A DNA stretch of 64,000 bases from Escherichia coli. Its GTDB lineage: Bacteria > Pseudomonadota > Gammaproteobacteria > Enterobacterales > Enterobacteriaceae. Of this stretch, positions 29,999 through 64,000 are shown in pieces. Made by a program: the position numbers and the translations under genes. How positions within the stretch are numbered: position 1 is the first letter of the stretch; every line of letters starts with the position of its first letter. Below the pieces are notes generated by a model. That model saw only the letters and a list, made by a program, of their open reading frames with translations. It did not search any database and was not told the origin of the DNA. Where the stretch lies: assembly GCF_044324785.1 (NCBI RefSeq), contig NZ_CP172127.1; one strand, 5' to 3'.

Positions 29999-30205
29999 TT
30001 ACGGACGGGACTGTGCAATACGCGCCTGCAGCCAGGCTTCCACTTCACTTTTCAGCCAGCGGGAGCTGCGGCCGAGTTTGATGGGAGCCGGAAAGGCCCC
30101 ATCCTTGATGAGCTTGTAAAACCACTTATCGGTCAGGCCGGTCAGCTGAGTGATAAACGTCATATCGACCATCTGGTCATCCATCAGCGAAACTGGGGTG
30201 GTCAT
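29999..30205 (-). CDS. alpA: AlpA-family phage/island transcriptional regulator
   Basis: 68 aa; FITQLTGLTDKWFYKLIKDGAFPAPIKLGRSSRWLKSEVEAWL is the AlpA/MerR-like excisionase-type HTH. Confidence 0.8.
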   Translation of the reverse strand: MTTPVSLMDDQMVDMTFITQLTGLTDKWFYKLIKDGAFPAPIKLGRSSRWLKSEVEAWLQARIAQSRP

Positions 30206-30588
30206 AAAAATCTTCTCCGGATGTTGTTAATCTCAGCCGGCGTTGATGATGAAAACAACGCACCACCTTCACCGGCATAACAACCGGGGAGAAACGTAAA
30301 AAATCAGTAGGGGAATATTCCTGCCAGGAGAGAAACTGTTGTGTACAGGCAATACAGGTTGTCTGTTTTGTCAGTGAAGCCGGTATAAACGGAAGATGAT
30401 TTTGTGTTGCCGGAATATGGGATGGCGTTTTGCCGTGACAGGATCAGTATTTTCAGTGATGATTATTACTGTGCAGGGGAGTACCGGAGATAAACCACGC
30501 CCTGTACCTGCCAGAGCGGAGGTTTGTATTGACTGAACGGAAGATAAAGCGAGGTAAACACTGTTGCGGTGAGCGGAGAAGACTGAGA

Positions 30589-31380
30589 TTATTCTCTGTA
30601 ATTACAAACAACAGTGATCTGATCCGGTTTTTTTACCGTTACGGGTTTCCGGGGATCAATTTTATAGACCGGGGTAATGACCACGCCGGAATTTATGGAG
30701 AAAAGCGGGATCCAGCAATAAACGTCCGGATATTTCTGTGTCTCCGGAATACCTTTTGTGCCAGAGGCCATCAGATCTTTAACGCTCACGAAAAATGACT
30801 TCCGCAGATCAAAAAAGTACTCGTTATATATCACATCCTTTGCCAGCAGGATGACTGCATTACCAACAGCCGATTTTACAGGTGTTTCATCAGGTGGATT
30901 ATCGTGATTGTATATTGTTCTTTCTATATAAATAAAACAGGCATATTTCGTCTTCTCCCCGGATAGTTGCATCTGGTATTCGCAAATGTCTTTGATATAC
31001 CGACTTTCAACCCTTCCAATCATCTTATCCCGGCGATAGTGTCTTTTATGTTTCAGCGCGTACAGAACACCATTTGAACTGTCAAACTCCAGGACACTTC
31101 TGGTGAAAAGTTTGTTTTCCCAGATCTCCAGACAATACTTCTCTGCACTGACGACATTGCGTTTGTGGGGAAGATTCCGTTGATACACTCCATTTAATAA
31201 GCGTGACTGCAGTTCGCCTGCAAGTTGATAGTAACAGTTAATGTCATTAAGGACAGGTGCTGTGGCGTTGAGTAATGTGTTGATTACCTTAGAGCGCGAA
31301 AGTTTGTGGGTATGACAGTACTCATCCACAATTCGCAGTGTCTCATCACTGGTCATATTGAAAGTTATACGTGTTGTCAT
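30589..31380 (-). CDS. hypothetical protein: N-terminal ribbon-helix-helix-like domain fused to an unknown ~200-aa domain
   Basis: 263 aa, low GC; N-terminus ITFNMTSDETLRIVDEYCHTHKLSRSKVINTLL resembles a CopG/Arc RHH; remainder has no recognisable motif. Confidence 0.5.
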   Translation of the reverse strand: MTTRITFNMTSDETLRIVDEYCHTHKLSRSKVINTLLNATAPVLNDINCYYQLAGELQSRLLNGVYQRNLPHKRNVVSAEKYCLEIWENKLFTRSVLEFDSSNGVLYALKHKRHYRRDKMIGRVESRYIKDICEYQMQLSGEKTKYACFIYIERTIYNHDNPPDETPVKSAVGNAVILLAKDVIYNEYFFDLRKSFFVSVKDLMASGTKGIPETQKYPDVYCWIPLFSINSGVVITPVYKIDPRKPVTVKKPDQITVVCNYRE

Positions 31381-31719
31381 GATGAAGTTTTCTGTTAATC
31401 ATACTGGTTGATATGCATAACATTTCATAAAAAATACTGTTAATTCATATAATTGATTTTTTGACTGGTTTTATCCTCGTGTGGTGGAAAGCAGTATTAC
31501 TGCCACTGTAGTCAGCATAAATCTATCACACAGAACCACCGAAAATGAAGCATTGCTCAGGGGGAAGCTGCCACTCGTATGAGTTCTCTGAACCATGATA
31601 ACCAGTATTTTTCGTTTTGGGTGATTTGTTTATCGTTACAGCTACATACAGTTCATGTACCATTAAAAAATAATAAAGGTTAATTAGTATTATTTATAGA
31701 AGTATGTTTATGTAATTCT

Positions 31720-31765
31720 ACCGTGTAAATGAACCCTGTAATTCTACCTTGTAAATACACCTTGT
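31720..31765. repeat. tandem direct repeats TGTAATTCTACC(G/T)TGTAAAT in a 1.4-kb non-coding region
   Basis: Two adjacent copies plus multiple dispersed (C)TGTAA motifs between 31700 and 31930. Confidence 0.4.
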
Positions 31766-32797
31766 AACCAAGTCCTGTAGAAGTCTGTCTCATAGAAGTA
31801 TCTGTGCAGTGATATTCTCTGTAGTAGTACTTGTAACTCTGTTCTTAACTCTCTCTTCAGTAATGTAGTCCCGCAACACCTGAATATAAATCTGTAATGT
31901 TCACACACTGACTGTAACGTGCTTTGTTAAGTAATGTCTGCTATTTTTTTTTCTGTTATTTTTCCTGTTGTTTTCTGTATTTTGTTGTATGGTGTAATAA
32001 CTATTCTGAACCCGTCATCACCTTTATAGCTAAGAGTATGACTTCGCCAGTGTTGATACTGTGGATAACGGTGATTAAGGAATTACTGTTAATGATCTGT
32101 TCCTGCAGCTCACCTGATGAGTTTTGGTAGTAATACGTAAAAGAGTATGCCTCATGTCATTAAAAAGTCTTCCGGAGTGTTGTTTAACCCTGTACCTCTG
32201 TTACTCATGTAGTACGTTGCGGAAAGCTACGTTAATTGTAATATCTGGTTATGGCGTTATGCCTTCAGTATTAAAAACATCTTTTACCGGAGAAACTGGG
32301 AAGTGGAAAGGCTTTCGGGATAACGTCAGGCCATTATGACGATATTACGTTAATCACAGTACAAGATAACGAGAGGGTAATGGAATTTTAAACCAGAGTA
32401 GTTCCACTGTTGTTCACTGGAAAAAGTGATTTCCCACGCGCGTTATAAGCTTACTCCAGAGGAGATGGAAGCCTTCAACTCTGCGGTCGATCACCGGCTG
32501 GCAGAACTGACCATGAACAAACTTTACGATCGTGTTCCCGCTTCAGTCTGGAAATATGTTACCTGATAAATGTTTCTGATGAAGTACAGTCGTCACAATG
32601 ACATCACTTCAGATATTATCTGCGCTGTGATTGACTGTCACGTATGCCGTTCTCTGTATGGTTCTGATACCCGGGTGTGGTCCCACTTTCTCTGTGGCGC
32701 CCGGGGAGTTGTGAACCTGCACGTCTTCGTGTGATAACGTTTTCTTCAAAAATTACGCCAGCGCTTCTTCCTGTGTTACAGAACACGAGGAAGAAAC

Positions 32798-33397
32798 ATG
32801 AAGACTTACAACACCAATCCCGGTTACGAAATGGATCCCCAGCTCCTGACACACTTTAACCAGCATCTGGATTCATTATTCGGGGTATATTCGAAACTGT
32901 TACCGTTCAGAATGGATTTTGCTTACCGAAAAAACACCCTCAGCTACAGATGTGCCTGCAGGTACGCCATGTGCGCGGAGATACTGCGACTGATTAACGA
33001 AGTGGGAGAGAAACTGGTCGGGTATGCCTGGGTAATGGAATATACGGAACGTAAAGGGCTTCACATTCATTTTGTGGGCTATCTGAACGGTCAGAGCCAC
33101 AGGAGTTCGTATCTGGTATCCAGATTGATGGGAGATATCTGGAGGCGGGTTACCGGGGGGGATGGTTACTACCACTGGTGCCGGTTTAATAAAAATTATC
33201 CGGTAAACATTAACCACGTCATTCACTATTCAGATCACAAAGCGGTGAATGCCTTACGCTATGCCATCAGCTACCTGGCCAAACGAGAACAGAAAGAATG
33301 TGGCATCATCCTGAAATGCAGCGGGCTTCCTGAAAAAAGTAATCGGGGTCGACCGCGACTGGGCAGCCCCCTGCCGGAGACTTATTCTCTGGTGTAA
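32798..33397 (+). CDS. inovirus Gp2-type / YagK-YfjJ family protein (HUH replication-initiator-like)
   Basis: 199 aa; HUH-like LHIHFVGY motif; SD GAGGA. Confidence 0.65.
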   Translation: MKTYNTNPGYEMDPQLLTHFNQHLDSLFGVYSKLLPFRMDFAYRKNTLSYRCACRYAMCAEILRLINEVGEKLVGYAWVMEYTERKGLHIHFVGYLNGQSHRSSYLVSRLMGDIWRRVTGGDGYYHWCRFNKNYPVNINHVIHYSDHKAVNALRYAISYLAKREQKECGIILKCSGLPEKSNRGRPRLGSPLPETYSLV

Positions 33398-33762
33398 GAC
33401 CCTGAACGACAACTACGGGCTGGCGCTAATTGTTACAGTCGGTTCCGGAGGCCACTTCAGGGACTCTGCGCATTTTTTACGACATGGCTATTCCGTATGA
33501 ACCATACGGAGATTTAACCATGGCACATTCTTTACCATTCCTTCCGGCAACCGATACAGCACATCCTCCGATGTCCATCCCTGCCTGCTGACAGTTTTTT
33601 ACGCCGGAGGGCCATTGTGTGACAACCACAGTGCTGTAACAGCAACCAGCCTGCTTTACCCAAACTCCAGTCCAGATTTTAACTGAACCGCCATTCACAC
33701 CCTGACCACACTGCCCGTACCGGGACAGCTGTTGCCTGCGTGTCGTCTGGCTGCTGAGGAAT

Positions 33763-34152
33763 ATGACGATGTACGCAAAATCCTTTATTGCATTTGATGG
33801 CAACGGGCGTCTGACGGGTGCCCGTACCGCACAGACTGCACCTTACGATCGCTACACTTGCCACCTTTGCGGCAGTGCGCTCAGATACCACCCGCAATAC
33901 GACACTGAGCGTCCCTGGTTTGAACACACTGACGACGGGCTGACGGAGCACGGTCAGCAGTGCCCTTATGTCAGACCGGAACGCAGGGAGATACAACTGA
34001 TTAAGCGTCTGCAGCAATTCGTACCGGATGCCTTACCCGTGGTGCGTAAAGCCAGCCGGCACTGCAGACAATGTCATCACGATTATTATGGGGAGCGGTA
34101 CTGCACGCACAGCCATACCGGGCACTTCAGTGAGGAGGGGGTGGCAGAATGA
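33763..34152 (+). CDS. small zinc-ribbon protein (paralog 1 of a tandem pair)
   Basis: 129 aa; CHLCGSAL...WFEH followed by a C-terminal CxxC/His cluster; stop overlaps next start (ATGA). Confidence 0.5.
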   Translation: MTMYAKSFIAFDGNGRLTGARTAQTAPYDRYTCHLCGSALRYHPQYDTERPWFEHTDDGLTEHGQQCPYVRPERREIQLIKRLQQFVPDALPVVRKASRHCRQCHHDYYGERYCTHSHTGHFSEEGVAE

Positions 34153-34574
34153 ACGGTATAAAAACGGGGCTGGGGATCACGCCGGGTGAACACATTATCA
34201 GTGCTGATTCTGCGCTCAGCAGAAATATCCGGCAGTGTTTCTGCCTTTCCTGTCATGGCCGGTTGATTTTGCAGACAGATGCTCAGGGGGCGTGGTTTGA
34301 GCACGATTTACATGTCCTGAGCGAGCAACAGAAGGCAGCCTGCGTGGTGCTGAATCCGGAAAAGTCCCACCCTTACATTGAGGATATGGAGATGTTTTTA
34401 TCGCCATTACCGGTCGTGCTGGAGTGGCATTGTGTGATGTGTGAGCAGTTTTTTCATGGGAAGAAATTCTGTGAGGCCTGTGGTACGGGGATTTATTGCA
34501 GAGCGGTATGTACGAAGTCTGTTTACAGCTACCAGCCAGACTTGTTTCAGGACTGCGGAGGTGCGAGTACTTAA
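34149..34574 (+). CDS. small zinc-ribbon protein (paralog 2 of a tandem pair)
   Basis: 141 aa; CLSCHGRL...WFEH and CVMC...CEAC motifs parallel the upstream gene. Confidence 0.5.
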   Translation: MNGIKTGLGITPGEHIISADSALSRNIRQCFCLSCHGRLILQTDAQGAWFEHDLHVLSEQQKAACVVLNPEKSHPYIEDMEMFLSPLPVVLEWHCVMCEQFFHGKKFCEACGTGIYCRAVCTKSVYSYQPDLFQDCGGAST

Positions 34575-35045: not shown

Positions 35046-35612
35046 ATGTATACAGAATCAAATGTTAAGCTTTCCTGTAACGCCCTCTGGCAAAAGTGTG
35101 TCCTTGCAACTCTGTATCGGGCTGCAGCCACACATCCTGAAATTAAATTATTACAATTTAAATTAATACCAGGGCAGGGTATTAATAAGGCCATTCCCTC
35201 TCTGATGGCTGATTTTACTGGTGAACTGCATAGACTCATTTCTGAATATTTGCAGTGTAAGCGACGTAAAGAGCAATCTGTTGAGCCCACCCCTTTATAT
35301 TATCTCTGGAGTAGGGAAGCTGTGGCTAACGATACCACTCCTTATCTTATGGTGCTGCTACTTAATAACGATGTCTGGTGTAAGAGTCGTGAGGTGGTGG
35401 TTCTCAGAAATCTGATTGAGCAGGCGTGGGGAAAAGTATTGGGTGAAGATAACTCCATTACACATCTGGTTGTGTATCCTGAAGTGCTGTCGTTGGTATT
35501 TGATGCAGCTAACACATACAACGCTGAGCCTGCTGTACTGGAACAGACGGCCCGGGCTTACATTGAATCACATGGTACCATTGAACGTCATCTTGGGTGT
35601 AGTGACTTTTAA
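35046..35612 (+). CDS. YagK-like (inovirus Gp2-type) protein with degenerate HUH motif
   Basis: 188 aa; YLWSRE...PYLMVLLLNNDVWC aligns with the HYHVILLLNKDTWC motif of the 57669 paralog but lacks both His. Confidence 0.6.
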   Translation: MYTESNVKLSCNALWQKCVLATLYRAAATHPEIKLLQFKLIPGQGINKAIPSLMADFTGELHRLISEYLQCKRRKEQSVEPTPLYYLWSREAVANDTTPYLMVLLLNNDVWCKSREVVVLRNLIEQAWGKVLGEDNSITHLVVYPEVLSLVFDAANTYNAEPAVLEQTARAYIESHGTIERHLGCSDF

Positions 35613-35957: not shown

Positions 35958-36659
35958 ATGTTTGGCCATCTGTTACGATACTTTAGTTTCTGTAAAAAAG
36001 ATTTATTAGTATTTCATCCTGAATCTGATTACTCAGATAATTTACATAAAGCCTTCTCTTTTACAAAAAGGCTAGGATTTAATGAAGAATGGAATGGGGT
36101 CACAAAAAACAAAGAATATGATTATCAGGATGTATTCAGTCATGTCTGTCTGCAGTCTGGTGTGACAGACTTTTCCGCTTCAGCAGGACAATGCTTAAAG
36201 TGGAGTCATTATTTTCAGCCATATTTTGAGAATATCCTTGAATGTCGGGTATGGGTTACCGTTGGACAACTCTGGAAACAGGAACGATTTATTTACAATC
36301 CGTCAGTTGCGGATTTTCAGCGCTGGTCTGAAAAAGGGATTCAGCCTGAAGATTTTAGACATCACTCGGGGTTTAACTTTCATGCGTGGTTGACGACGGA
36401 AAATGGTGTGATTGTGGATGTTTCCTTTATGAGTACGTTATCGCGGCGATTACCTGAACACCTGAGTGAAGTCAGTGGAAGTGTGATTATTGGCACGCCA
36501 GAGACGGTTCTTCCTGAGTATAAATATGTTCCCATGATTGTCGGTCAGAGGATTGTTGAGAAAATAGAAAAACGCTCTTTCATTGGTTTTCTGGCGCACG
36601 ACGATATTGATTTATATACAGTACCTGCAATCTTGGTTCCGGTATGGAAAGAATGTTAA
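35958..36659 (+). CDS. hypothetical orphan cargo protein
   Basis: Track ORF starts at TTG 35943; ATG at 35958 preceded by GGGGAG; 233 aa; low GC; no recognisable motif. Confidence 0.5.
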   Translation: MFGHLLRYFSFCKKDLLVFHPESDYSDNLHKAFSFTKRLGFNEEWNGVTKNKEYDYQDVFSHVCLQSGVTDFSASAGQCLKWSHYFQPYFENILECRVWVTVGQLWKQERFIYNPSVADFQRWSEKGIQPEDFRHHSGFNFHAWLTTENGVIVDVSFMSTLSRRLPEHLSEVSGSVIIGTPETVLPEYKYVPMIVGQRIVEKIEKRSFIGFLAHDDIDLYTVPAILVPVWKEC

Positions 36660-57668: not shown

Positions 57669-58400
57669 ATGAATCAACCAATACACAATGATTACTGGTT
57701 ATCCCGTTTTGAAAGTATTCTCAACAGTGCCCTGGTGCAACACCGTGCCGTCTCGTTAATCCGGGTGGATTTACGTTTCCCTGAGCATATGCCTGTCACC
57801 ATCATGGATCCCGATCCGGATTCAGCGGTGATTTCTCGTTTTTTCGAATCCCTGAAAGCCAAAATTCAGGCTTACCAGCGGAAAAAACGACGTACCAACA
57901 AGCGTGTGCGTGCAACCACCCTGCATTATTTCTGGTGTCGGGAGTTTGGCAAGGAAAAAGGCAGGAAACATTATCACGTGATATTACTGCTCAACAAAGA
58001 TACCTGGTGCTCGCCAGGGGATTTCACCGTTCCTTCTTCGCTGGCGACGCTGATCCAACTGGCATGGTGTAGCGCTCTGCATCTTGAGCCCTGGCAGGGT
58101 AATGGACTGGTTCATTTTTCCAGGCGGACGCCTTTCCGTAAACCGGCATCATCTGATGCTCGCCCTTCTTCCGATGATACGCCTTTGTCGGGTGGATGTT
58201 CTGAAACCAGGAAGGCTTCAGACAAAAAGCCGGGTGAAGCCGCTGTTCTCTGGATCAAGCGTGGTGATGTGGAAGCGATGCAGAAAGCCATGGAGAGAGC
58301 CCGTTATCTCGTGAAGTATGAGACGAAGCAGCATGACGGTTCTGGTCAACGTAATTATGGTTGCAGCCGTGGAGCGGGGCGTCTACTGGATGGCAGGTGA
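57669..58400 (+). CDS. YagK-like inovirus Gp2-type protein (HUH replication-initiator-like)
   Basis: 243 aa; HUH motif HYHVILLL; SD GGAGA. Confidence 0.65.
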   Translation: MNQPIHNDYWLSRFESILNSALVQHRAVSLIRVDLRFPEHMPVTIMDPDPDSAVISRFFESLKAKIQAYQRKKRRTNKRVRATTLHYFWCREFGKEKGRKHYHVILLLNKDTWCSPGDFTVPSSLATLIQLAWCSALHLEPWQGNGLVHFSRRTPFRKPASSDARPSSDDTPLSGGCSETRKASDKKPGEAAVLWIKRGDVEAMQKAMERARYLVKYETKQHDGSGQRNYGCSRGAGRLLDGR

Positions 58401-58726: not shown

Positions 58727-60331
58727 ATGAATTCCGCTTATATGCAATCCTTGCAGACATCCCACCACTTCCCAGCTGATTTAACCTACAGATTATTTCC
58801 TAGTGAGCTTGCATATCTCATTGACGACTTATATGAAAGTACCCAACTTCCGCTGGAGCTCATTTTTAATACTGTACTGGCAACGCTCTCACTCTCCTGT
58901 CAGTCACTGGTTGACGTTGTTCATCCTCACACCAACATGCCGGAACCCTGCTCACTTTATCTGTTGGCAATCGCAGAGCCAGGCGCGGGAAAAACAACGA
59001 TAAACAGACTGGTGATGAACCCCTGTTACGAATTTGCCGATCGACTCATTCAACAATACGAAGAGAGAAACAAAGATTATAAGACTGAACTACAGATCTG
59101 GAATACCCGGCAGAAAGCGCTTGCTGCCAATTTAAGAAAGGCTGTTAACCGGGGGTATCCGGGGGAACAGGAAGAAGAGGCGCTGCGTAATCACGAAAGA
59201 AATAAACCGACACGTCCGGTTCGACCGAATTTTATCTATGAAGATGTTTCGCTTAAAGCGCTTGTGGAAGGGCTCAATGAACATCCTGAGGCAGGGGTTA
59301 TTTCTGACGAGGCGGTCACTTTTTTCAGAAGCTATCTGAAAAATTATCCGGGCCTGTTGAATAAAGCATGGAGTGGACAACCGTTTGATTTTGGACGGGC
59401 TGACGAGAAATACCATATCACGCCACGTCTGACATTTTCGTTAATGTCCCAGCCGGATGTCTTTACGAATTATATAAATAAAAATGACGTACTGGCGTGG
59501 GGAAGCGGATTTCTTTCCCGGTTTCTGTTCAGTCAGACCGGAAGTCCTTCCCGGGTACGGGATTATACGAGAGGCGAGTTCAGAACAAAACCAACCCTGG
59601 AGAAGTTTCATAAAAAGATTAACGGATTTCTGTTAAGCCATAACATTAATTCCCCCGGTATGAGCACCGAAAGGAAAACATTAAAACTTGCAAAGAAAGC
59701 GTTGGGGGAGTGGCAGGAAAACCAGATTAAGATTGAAAGAAAAGCGCTTGCAGGAGGGGAGTGGGAACACATCAGAGATATTGTTCTGAAAGCAGGTTCT
59801 AATATACTGAGGATAGCTGGAATATTCACCTGCTATTGCTATAAAGATGCTGAGGAAATTGAATCAATTGCGCTTTTTAAAGCTATGCATCTCATGGACT
59901 GGTATCTGGAGGAGGCGAGCACAATATTTTATCCCATGTCTGCACGATGCCAGTTTGAACAGGATGCCTGTGAACTGTATGCATGGATTATGACCCGAAT
60001 AAGGCAGAATAATTGGCGTGCTATCAGGAAAACAGACATTGAAAGATATGGTCCCAATCGTCTGAGAAGAGCAGAAAAACTTACACCTGTACTCAATCAG
60101 TTAATCGCTCAAAATTATTTCCGTATCATCAAGATGCGATCGCATCAGGCACTTTATGTTTCTGCTCTTGATAATAATGGTTACATCCTTCCTTTCGGCG
60201 CAATGTCTTACGAACCGTTTGATATTGTTCCACCCCAGTATAACCATAATGCGAAAACATATTCCGTTGTTATTCCACCGGCATTAATTCAGTCATTTAC
60301 ACCTGATTCCTCAGCTTACACCTTATTTTAA
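58727..60331 (+). CDS. YfjI-like island protein with Walker A-like P-loop
   Basis: 534 aa; AEPGAGKTT motif; strong SD GAAGGAGG. Confidence 0.6.
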   Translation: MNSAYMQSLQTSHHFPADLTYRLFPSELAYLIDDLYESTQLPLELIFNTVLATLSLSCQSLVDVVHPHTNMPEPCSLYLLAIAEPGAGKTTINRLVMNPCYEFADRLIQQYEERNKDYKTELQIWNTRQKALAANLRKAVNRGYPGEQEEEALRNHERNKPTRPVRPNFIYEDVSLKALVEGLNEHPEAGVISDEAVTFFRSYLKNYPGLLNKAWSGQPFDFGRADEKYHITPRLTFSLMSQPDVFTNYINKNDVLAWGSGFLSRFLFSQTGSPSRVRDYTRGEFRTKPTLEKFHKKINGFLLSHNINSPGMSTERKTLKLAKKALGEWQENQIKIERKALAGGEWEHIRDIVLKAGSNILRIAGIFTCYCYKDAEEIESIALFKAMHLMDWYLEEASTIFYPMSARCQFEQDACELYAWIMTRIRQNNWRAIRKTDIERYGPNRLRRAEKLTPVLNQLIAQNYFRIIKMRSHQALYVSALDNNGYILPFGAMSYEPFDIVPPQYNHNAKTYSVVIPPALIQSFTPDSSAYTLF

Positions 60332-61920: not shown

Positions 61921-62487
61921 ATGCCTAAATCTTACACACCAAACTGGTTTTTTACCGCTTTACTTGACAATCACATCAATCAAATGATGGCACGCTATTC
62001 CTGCCTGCGGGCCTTACGGATGGATTTCTTCTACAGGAAAGATACGCCTGATTTCTTACAACCTGATCATCGCTGGCTTGAATTGCAGTTGCGTATGCTG
62101 CTGGAGCAGGTGGAACAATTTGAAAATATCGTTGGTTTCTTCTGGGTGATTGAATGGACGGCTGATCATGGTTTTCATGCGCATGTGGTTTTCTGGATCG
62201 ATCGTCAGAGGGTTAAAAAAATATATCCCTTTGCGGAGCGGATAGCGGAATGCTGGCGGTCTATTACGCATAACAGCGGTTCGGCACACCGCTGTACATA
62301 TCAGCCGCATTATACATACAACATCAACATTCCTGTGCGCCACAACGATCCTGAAAGCATCGATAATATTCGCGGTGCCCTGCATTATCTGGCAAAAGAA
62401 GAGCAAAAAGACGGGCTGTGTGCCTACGGCTGCAATGAAGTTCCTGAACGTCCTGCTGCAGGGCGTCCTCGTAAGCCTCACTTCTGA
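61921..62487 (+). CDS. YfjJ-like inovirus Gp2-type protein (HUH replication-initiator-like)
   Basis: 188 aa; HUH motif FHAHVVFWI; SD AGGAG. Confidence 0.7.
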   Translation: MPKSYTPNWFFTALLDNHINQMMARYSCLRALRMDFFYRKDTPDFLQPDHRWLELQLRMLLEQVEQFENIVGFFWVIEWTADHGFHAHVVFWIDRQRVKKIYPFAERIAECWRSITHNSGSAHRCTYQPHYTYNINIPVRHNDPESIDNIRGALHYLAKEEQKDGLCAYGCNEVPERPAAGRPRKPHF

Positions 62488-62744
62488 AGCTTAAATCCTG
62501 AGCTTCCTGTCCTGGAAACACTCCGTCGGTAAAAACTTACCGCCTTGCTTAATGATGTGAACTGAAGTCAACGGAGATCATTCACTCTGAACCACATCCG
62601 GTGTTCTGTCCCTTGTCGGTGACCTGATCTTCCCGTTCTGCCCCGGTTCTTCACTTATTCCATCAACCCCATCCGCAAACCATAACACGTCAGCTTATTC
62701 ACGGGCAGGACGCATTGTGGGCTGCGCATAACGGAGCATATCTT

Positions 62745-63305
62745 ATGAATGCTATCCCTTATTTCGACTATAGCCTGGCCCCCTTCTGGCCATCTTATCA
62801 GAACAAAGTCATCGGCGTCCTTGAGCGTGCGCTGCGTGAGCAGTCCGGCTCACGGATACGGCGGATCCTGCTTCGTCTGCCGTGTGAATATGACAATACC
62901 TTCAACAGCAGAACGACCTGGTTTGGTATGGATTTTATCGAAACCGTCAGTGCGCTGATGAATGCAACACCCGGACGTGACCTTTGCTGGCTCCTGACCC
63001 GTCATCCTGAAAAACCGGAATACCATGTGGTGCTGTGCGTCAGACAGGAGTATTTCGACGGCCCCGAACTGGATCGGTTGATTCTGGATGCCTGGAGTAA
63101 CGTGCTGGGTTTCGCGTCACCAGGTGAAGCAAAGCCGTACCAGAAGCAGATCACCCGGGATGTGGTACTGGATCGCCGGTCACCGGACTGCGAAGCCCTG
63201 TTTAAGGACCTTATCTGGGCGTTCAGTGATTTCGCCCGCGATCGCCGTGGAGTGCGCGATCCGGAAGCCCGTTGCCTCGCCGGTAATCCCGGTTGGCAGT
63301 GCTGA
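62745..63305 (+). CDS. YagK/YfjJ-related protein with partial HUH motif
   Basis: Track ORF starts at TTG 62715; ATG at 62745 after ACGGAG; motif PEYHVVLCV has one His only. Confidence 0.5.
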   Translation: MNAIPYFDYSLAPFWPSYQNKVIGVLERALREQSGSRIRRILLRLPCEYDNTFNSRTTWFGMDFIETVSALMNATPGRDLCWLLTRHPEKPEYHVVLCVRQEYFDGPELDRLILDAWSNVLGFASPGEAKPYQKQITRDVVLDRRSPDCEALFKDLIWAFSDFARDRRGVRDPEARCLAGNPGWQC

Positions 63306-63373
63306 AAGCAGCATTCCATCCCATACCTCGTATTACCCCATTCTTCATCAATCTCACAGAGGATATTCTGACC

Positions 63374-63607
63374 ATGTTGACCACAATAAGCCACGACAGC
63401 GTGTTGCTGCGTGCCGACGATCCCCTGATCGACATGAACTACATCACCAGTTTCACCGGCATGACCGATAAATGGTTTTACAGGCTGATCAGTGAAGGTC
63501 ATTTCCCTAAACCCATCAAACTGGGGCGCAGCAGCCGCTGGTACAAAAGTGAAGTGGAGCAGTGGATGCAGCAGCGAATTGAGGAATCACGAGGAGCAGC
63601 AGCATGA
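63374..63607 (+). CDS. alpA: AlpA-family transcriptional regulator, second copy
   Basis: ITSFTGMTDKWFYRLISEGHFPKPIKLGRSSRWYKSEVEQW; track ORF trimmed to MLTTISH after GAGGA. Confidence 0.8.
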   Translation: MLTTISHDSVLLRADDPLIDMNYITSFTGMTDKWFYRLISEGHFPKPIKLGRSSRWYKSEVEQWMQQRIEESRGAAA

Positions 63608-63696
63608 AACGTGTTGTAATGCCAGTACGCTGGCAATGTGCGAAATGCCGGCGCTGGTATTGTGGAAATCAGCCCTGTCCCTGGTGCTGGCGCTGA
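63604..63696 (+). CDS. candidate 30-aa Cys-rich small ORF translationally coupled to alpA
   Basis: ATGA overlap with alpA stop; MKRVVMPVRWQCAKCRRWYCGNQPCPWCWR has two CxxC pairs. Confidence 0.3.
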   Translation: MKRVVMPVRWQCAKCRRWYCGNQPCPWCWR

Positions 63697-64000
63697 CAAC
63701 TCCCGCTCATCTTTCTGCTGGCACCCTCTGGCCAGCCAACTGTTTGTCATCATTTCCTGACTGATTCGTCATTCCCTTCGTCCCGCCAGTCACTGGTGTT
63801 TGTATCGTACCGTGCCGGTGTCGATGTGCGCTTTCCGTGTGTCTGGTCTGCACCGGCTTAACAAAATTCAACGGGGATAAAATAGTGCAAATAACCGAAG
63901 CCTTACTTTCAGCGCCGGGGGAAATCCGGCGTTTTGTTCAGCAGGCGGTGGACCACTGGCCAAATCTGTTGGCATTTCACTTCACGCTCCATTCGGCAGA

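Follow-up and report, generated by a model that had tools for sequence, protein, structure and literature searches.

What do two small, overlapping, cysteine-rich genes do in a genomic island of Escherichia coli, and do they belong to the variable cargo of that island or to its backbone? The window analysed here, a stretch of 64,000 nucleotides, is an E. coli genomic island, collinear with NZ_CP097170 and adjoining the kps capsule genes; its backbone comprises DUF4942, CbtA/CbeA, RadC, antirestriction, DUF932, Ag43 and GTPase genes, and IS elements and pseudogenes are abundant in it. A sequence-only reading of the window had singled out positions 33763–34574 as a translationally coupled pair of paralogous zinc-ribbon genes, a candidate undescribed module lying in low-GC cargo where a defence or addiction function might be expected.

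The gene pair and its protein family

The two same-strand genes are present at 33763–34574 as described, overlapping by ATGA. The first, which we call ZnA (33769..34152, plus strand), encodes 127 aa (WP_000270956.1) with a DUF7828 domain and a degenerate Zn_ribbon_11 domain; the second, ZnB (34149..34574, plus strand), encodes 141 aa (WP_001013324.1) with DUF7828 and a canonical Zn_ribbon_11. At 34149–34152 the ATG of ZnB overlaps the TGA of ZnA, giving an overlap of 4 nt in the window, and GAGGAGGGGG lies inside ZnA, 5' of the ZnB start. Both reading frames are intact. The length of 129 aa first given for ZnA corresponds to a real reading frame, 33763..34152, that opens at an alternative upstream ATG; the true start is most likely 33769 (MYAKSF...), as RefSeq uses this position, all orthologs begin there and a GAGGA stands 9 nt upstream. 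The supposed low GC content did not hold either, as ZnA has 56% and ZnB 50% GC against 47% for the window, and it is the neighbours alone that are AT-rich.

The paralogy and shared architecture proposed for the two proteins are borne out, with 31% identity over 81 aa (BLASTP, E = 2e-9) and the same two Pfam domains in each. DUF7828 (PF25165) is matched at the N-terminus with E-values of 2.8e-31 in ZnA and 3.7e-22 in ZnB, and Zn_ribbon_11 (PF11682, formerly DUF3279) at the C-terminus with 1e-4 and 3.8e-15, respectively; RefSeq names both proteins 'putative zinc ribbon protein' (Enterobacterales). The view that no named family could be assigned is thereby superseded. In a Pfam scan of diverse family members, all of the 49 proteins match both domains. 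The invariant layout of the family is a CxxC, about 18 residues, WFEH, about 11 residues and a C, followed by WxCxxC-x9-CxxC, so that the CxxC...WFEH segment and the C-terminal Cys/His cluster picked out earlier correspond to its invariant columns. The invariant C33, C36, W52, F53, E54 and H55 and the near-invariant C67 are all found in ZnA and ZnB. The N-terminal domain of ZnA in the window is fully canonical; in its C-terminal ribbon, R stands in place of the near-invariant W that precedes the first CxxC, and the second knuckle has S instead of its second Cys (CTHSH vs CTHCH), so that one zinc ligand is lost. The C-terminal ribbon of ZnB is canonical. The features that mark membership of the DUF7828/Zn_ribbon_11 family, namely the N-terminal domain, the C-terminal domain and a location downstream of a YagK/YfjJ gene (AlpA present or not) in an integrase-type island, are all found in the pair, and to judge from these ZnA and ZnB are ordinary members of a catalogued family, with no difference in kind.

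An AlphaFold2 model of ZnB, built from a 49-sequence alignment (mean pLDDT 82.5, pTM 0.55), has two confident beta-rich domains (residues 1–70 and 86–125) joined by a helical linker of low confidence. Each protein is accordingly modelled as an N-terminal CCHC finger, a helical linker and a C-terminal four-Cys ribbon, and both are, by their sequences, small non-enzymatic predicted zinc proteins that carry no catalytic motifs. Modelling of the heterodimer, suggested as a check in the sequence-only reading, gave no support for an A:B complex: the model of A and B fused by a linker of 30 residues, a crude construct run with paired and unpaired homologs and without PAE, reached a pTM of 0.40 and a pLDDT of 69.9, the latter below that of ZnB alone.

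The family has no solved-structure relative in a PDB profile search, which returned a marginal match to RPB9 (E = 0.012) and nothing else. RPB9 and TFS resemble the Zn proteins in having two zinc ribbons and a linker, a likeness from which the spurious UniRef name 'DNA-directed RNA polymerase, beta subunit' probably stems. We reject membership of the RPB9/TFIIS type, as there is no significant sequence or fold match and the E-value of 0.012 reflects an effect of cysteine spacing. The N-terminal domain is weakly CoiA_N-like, at a level of similarity below Pfam significance: DUF7828 shares with CoiA_N (PF25164) the order of a beta strand, a CxxC, about 18 residues, an aromatic-F-x-H motif and then a Cys, and 8 of the 49 family members match CoiA_N weakly at E<=0.1 (best 1.3e-3, none <=0.001), while 6 of the 49 weakly match DUF7830. 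In CoiA itself, a putative zinc finger precedes a PD-(D/E)XK nuclease, which acts to resolve the D-loops of transformation (10.1101/2024.02.06.579203). Unlike CoiA, the Zn proteins lack the PD-(D/E)XK nuclease (no match to PF06054) and end at about 130–140 aa; they also carry an extra C-terminal ribbon, stand alone and occur in islands of non-competent enterobacteria. Scans of NCBIfam, PADLOC and PHROGs gave no useful match for the pair, and a literature search found no functional study of, or paper on, the DUF7828/Zn_ribbon_11 family. The term 'undescribed' is therefore apt for the mechanism, but not for the family, which is already in Pfam and RefSeq.

A fixed place in an island operon

Both genes that flank the pair belong to the YagK/YfjJ family, as the earlier description of two HUH/Gp2-like neighbours implied, but the HUH motif is confined to one of them. 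The upstream gene (32798..33397, plus strand; 'inovirus-type Gp2') has intact HUH-type motifs (R..D, E, H-I-H and YLAK), whereas in the downstream paralog (35046..35612, plus strand; YagK_YfjJ_C, 9e-10) the HUH histidines are replaced (PYLMVLLL). In an alignment of YagK/YfjJ proteins, the invariant R, D, E, H, H, W, Y and K columns fit the active site of a putative HUH endonuclease, and the YagK/YfjJ neighbours show weak REP_ORF2-G2P matches. A PDB profile search found no solved relative, matching His-tag artefacts only, and the literature on YagK, YfjJ and Gp2 holds incidental mentions only. Equivalents of the downstream gene in other genera carry a precomputed PF27752 (UCP030791) match that was not reproduced on the window protein at 35046..35612.

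Among known systems, the flanking genes recall HUH rolling-circle and relaxase modules (inovirus gpII, or an RCR Rep with RepB/CopG-type regulators), which share HUH and Tyr motifs with YagK/YfjJ. A further likeness is that the divergent upstream gene has weak RepB-RCR_reg matches in some loci; RepB-RCR_reg is a regulator of rolling-circle plasmids. These weak or faint matches, in a gene divergent from the operon, were seen at L028 3524–4477, L034 3563–4531 and L038 227–1456. The divergent gene of the window (30589..31380, 263 aa) has no Pfam match, and its sub-threshold NCBIfam match covers the first 32 residues only. Unlike the described HUH modules, of which zinc-ribbon partners are not a known component, the present arrangement contains a second YagK/YfjJ paralog predicted to be catalytically dead, and its HUH assignment is putative.

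A genome scan gave 18 loci from about 13 named genera and several metagenome bins. In loci with enough flank, the Zn gene is found downstream of a YagK/YfjJ gene whose strand it shares, an arrangement that extends to about 15 genera overall and in which the upstream YagK/YfjJ protein nearly always keeps its H-x-H. The sole full-flank exception is L019, a truncated Zn fragment in Erwinia with no YagK/YfjJ neighbour. Ten of the loci, including the window, have a second Zn paralog followed by the HUH-less YagK/YfjJ paralog, so that the co-occurrence of the two genes across genomes, put forward as a synteny check, is conserved. From gene tables with precomputed Pfam matches, the canonical operon reads YagK_YfjJ, AlpA, Zn, Zn, YagK_YfjJ(weak)/UCP030791, DUF2913. 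The order YagK_YfjJ, AlpA and then Zn recurs in the gene tables of Citrobacter, Hafnia and distant family members; five very divergent members all adjoin YagK_YfjJ and AlpA, usually with a single Zn gene after AlpA. In Citrobacter the full order is Gp2, AlpA, two unannotated genes, Zn, Gp2, Zn and then a Dpd cluster. Read from position, the Zn genes would share a transcript with the gene of an HUH-type protein and, in most cases, with that of AlpA.

The window departs from this order in one respect. Its alpA, encoding an AlpA-family HTH protein (30000..30206, minus strand), is displaced and inverted, whereas in most other genera alpA has the orientation of the HUH gene and ZnA and stands between them; no alpA remnant was found in the 365-bp gap 5' of ZnA. 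At the position that DUF2913 occupies in other genera, the window has a hypothetical gene of 233–238 aa (35958–36659, 39.5% GC), whose protein has no match in NCBIfam, PADLOC or PHROGs.

Where contigs extend far enough, the cargo found 3' of the operon is Dpd, or SMEK/CTD10/MC6/DUF2326 genes with an integrase beyond them, or an ars operon; the antirestriction, DUF932, RadC and GTPase genes lie on the opposite side of the operon from this cargo. The operon is also found on Klebsiella and Raoultella megaplasmids of 200–480 kb. On an IncFIB/IncHI1B plasmid of Klebsiella pneumoniae (NZ_CP110517.1, L035, 7750–18414), Gp2, AlpA, Zn, Zn, a Gp2-type gene and DUF2913 are directly followed by an RND efflux cluster, marked in PLSDB as a resistance gene. 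Because the position of the operon is fixed and the variable cargo starts downstream of it, the Zn genes are, by this comparison of loci, backbone at the edge of the cargo region, and not the cargo for which they had been taken.

Two further stretches of the window touch on the same gene families. A second island at the right end (61921–64000) repeats the operon skeleton, with a Gp2-like gene carrying HAH (61921..62487), a 196-aa ORF (62715..63305), an AlpA gene (about 63377..63598), a 30-aa ORF (63604..63696), MKRVVMPVRWQCAKCRRWYCGNQPCPWCWR, that has the exact Zn_ribbon_11 spacing as a stand-alone mini-ribbon, and the start of a UCP030791-like gene (63885..) that runs past the window end. At 57669–58400 lies a YagK/YfjJ-type gene of 243 aa with H-Y-H intact and no zinc-ribbon gene behind it; a 534-aa ORF follows at 58727..60331.

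Distribution, evolution and conserved leader

Of 5426 complete E. coli genomes, 3853 contain DNA that resembles the pair, with a median of 2 and a maximum of 7 sites in each, and the exact window alleles are found on at least 1000 contigs (ZnA) and on 875 contigs (ZnB). ZnA-type proteins of 60–90% identity are present in Salmonella, Citrobacter, Klebsiella, Enterobacter, Serratia and others; the ZnB type of the window is nearly restricted to E. coli and Shigella. The family is narrow, as searching 1.84 billion representative proteins with a profile yielded only 272 clusters; it was not found among 50,697 phage records and is rare on plasmids (29 of 72,556, mostly Klebsiella megaplasmids). Median dN/dS values of 0.18 for ZnA and 0.20 for ZnB-type genes, with 0.11–0.18 for the window allele against its orthologs, are the signature of purifying selection, which by these sequence comparisons acts on both genes (dN/dS about 0.2).

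The proposed translational coupling is likewise upheld, since the overlap, of 13 nt or 4 nt, recurs together with a Shine-Dalgarno sequence in the ZnA 3' end in at least nine loci from different genera; the 13-nt form stands behind GGAGGTGA in seven loci, again from different genera. This recurrence across genera argues that the pairing is not due to chance. ZnB evolves faster than ZnA, with several ZnB types within E. coli, and chimeras between ZnA and ZnB indicate recombination. The second gene is frameshifted or absent beside an intact first gene in L005, L008, L015 and L016, and single-gene and broken-second-gene states are common among related loci. The ancestral state was probably a single Zn gene, the pair being a later tandem duplication. 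Among individual sequences, one natural chain of 238 aa (P0232) contains one and a half Zn units, and two A/C-type chimeras (P0118 and P0188) resemble deletions between adjacent paralogs.

Directly 5' of ZnA lies a conserved leader of 67 nt (33687..33753, plus strand) with the core CCGGGACGGCTnnnGCCTGCGTGT at 33720–33743. It is present in one copy per locus and is about 85% identical across genera, at distances where synonymous sites in ZnA are saturated; the window copy carries mismatches. The leader is taken as non-coding because its reading frame is not conserved, and an RNA fold is not supported, given that no compensatory pairs or covariation, a z-score of -1.24 and no Rfam match were obtained; nor is a DNA hairpin or an origin claimed for it. 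Candidate roles are those of an operator, a leader or a recognition site. Scans for promoters and terminators in the vicinity of the pair yielded nothing informative. A different kind of element is found at 31711–31769, where four to five tandem 13-bp repeats (TGTAAWTnnACCy) sit in a 1-kb spacer of 36% GC between the 263-aa divergent gene and an Hha-family gene. Their number of matches was reached in 0 of 100 shuffles, and they look like iterons by sequence; among the loci compared, they occur only in the E. coli copies.

Candidate roles of the zinc-ribbon pair

We tentatively favor, with a confidence that falls somewhat short of even, a role for ZnA and ZnB as zinc-stabilised, nucleic-acid- and/or YagK/YfjJ-binding accessory factors of an HUH/AlpA module for excision, replication and transfer of the island. 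AlpA-family proteins switch on integrase expression and excision in CP4-57, and HUH proteins nick DNA to set off rolling-circle replication or transfer. On its other arm (antirestriction, DUF932, RadC) the island resembles plasmid leading regions, and a preprint on related Pseudomonas islands describes a Gp2-like protein, AlpA and RadC as probable core functions (10.1101/2024.08.29.610337). The accessory-factor role is proposed from these associations, that is, with AlpA, with the HUH protein, with the leading-region-like arm and with the content of the Pseudomonas islands. We envision that both proteins would bind nucleic acid and/or the YagK/YfjJ proteins and could serve as specificity or regulatory subunits in the island life cycle, which would comprise excision driven by AlpA and control over how the excised island is nicked, replicated or transferred. 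In this scheme the conserved subunit would be ZnA, with ZnB as a rapidly evolving partner that is at times dispensable. Several observations pull the other way. The pI of the proteins is near-neutral (5.7–8.4) and not basic; the fusion model gave no support for a heterodimer; ZnA is unchanged whichever YagK/YfjJ subtype stands upstream, which argues against tight co-evolution with the nuclease; and ZnA in the window has lost a zinc ligand. In the islands of E. coli K-12, yagK and yfjJ are not known to have a zinc gene beside them, so that the nuclease would not strictly need the zinc genes.

A more elaborate possibility, to which we give rather little credence, is a new four-component DNA-processing machine formed by the active and inactive HUH paralogs and the CoiA_N-like Zn pair, co-expressed with AlpA at the backbone–cargo junction. 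Such a machine might nick and replicate the island, mobilise it, or exchange cargo at that junction, and the 67-nt leader could serve it as a recognition or control site.

The Zn proteins might instead be small zinc-finger transcription activators or RNA-polymerase-binding proteins of the Ogr/Delta or TraR/DksA kind, co-expressed with AlpA and turning on genes of the island or of a helper phage or helper plasmid. Their genes stand directly behind alpA in the same operon in most genera, the proteins are small, with two zinc modules and no catalytic motifs, and the strongly conserved leader of ZnA suggests tight regulation. There is a precedent in Delta of P4, a tandem duplication of an Ogr-like finger, and the Ogr/Delta activators of P2 and P4 are, like the Zn pair, small proteins with zinc fingers, encoded where an integrase-bearing satellite or island has its regulatory genes. 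The comparison does not extend to the sequences, though: the proteins differ in size and in the spacing of their cysteines, similarity is seen neither in sequence nor in Pfam domains, neither Ogr_Delta nor zf-dskA_traR of Pfam is matched even at E<=10 or in the scans of individual family members, and there are no recognisable P4 genes near the Zn-pair islands. The marginal match to RPB9 (E = 0.012), an RNA polymerase subunit with two ribbons, which would also speak for a role in transcription, is driven by cysteine spacing, and we regard such a role as unlikely. A self-contained conflict module, be it phage or plasmid defence, anti-defence or a toxin–antitoxin addiction pair, is what two small overlapping genes within a mobile island would first bring to mind, all the more as known or likely defence cargo starts just downstream in related islands and ZnB is fast-evolving, with several types and recombinant chimeras. 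Yet the operon occupies a fixed and not a variable backbone position, conservation of ZnA is strong (omega 0.18), the ancestor was probably a single gene, and the paralogous partners have no enzymatic or toxin domain. A known defence system is not supported, as the pair and its four neighbours match 0 PADLOC-DB 2.0 families at E<=0.1, and NCBIfam likewise gave nothing. Type II toxin–antitoxin systems combine unrelated folds, one with a known toxin domain, and their antitoxin cannot be lost alone; a type II pair is rejected here because the partners are paralogous, neither matches a toxin or antitoxin family, and the second gene is lost alone, being frameshifted or absent while the first is intact in the four loci named above. 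With no PADLOC match, no phage homolog, a probable single-gene ancestor and paralogous partners, the defence or addiction function originally suggested is not borne out, and we consider a conflict module quite improbable.

It is similarly doubtful that the pair of the window island is a decaying passenger, the relic of an ancestral operon with no current function. The W-to-R and Cys-to-Ser changes in the C-terminal ribbon of ZnA, where the Pfam match is only 1e-4, the displaced and inverted alpA, the mismatches in the window copy of the leader and an island full of IS elements and pseudogenes would all fit decay. Against it stand the intact reading frames of both genes, the fully canonical N-terminal domain, the low dN/dS of the window allele against orthologs (0.11–0.18) and the exact alleles on at least 1000 (ZnA) and 875 (ZnB) contigs.

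Whichever biochemical role applies, the comparison of sequences and gene order identifies the Zn pair as core genes of integrase/AlpA-type genomic islands of Enterobacterales. In the literature searched, we did not find the conserved operon that joins a putatively active HUH protein and AlpA to paired Zn proteins and a predicted dead HUH paralog. The pair alone is a catalogued domain family, and its value lies in pointing to a testable operon and not to a new kind of system. The cargo of islands with the Zn operon includes Ag43, CbtA/CbeA, capsule, defence and resistance genes; most E. coli genomes have such islands, often in several copies, and they are found on Klebsiella megaplasmids too. 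The operon, consisting of the HUH protein, AlpA, two Zn proteins, the dead HUH paralog and DUF2913, is an obvious candidate for the machinery by which these islands might replicate or move after excision by AlpA and integrase.
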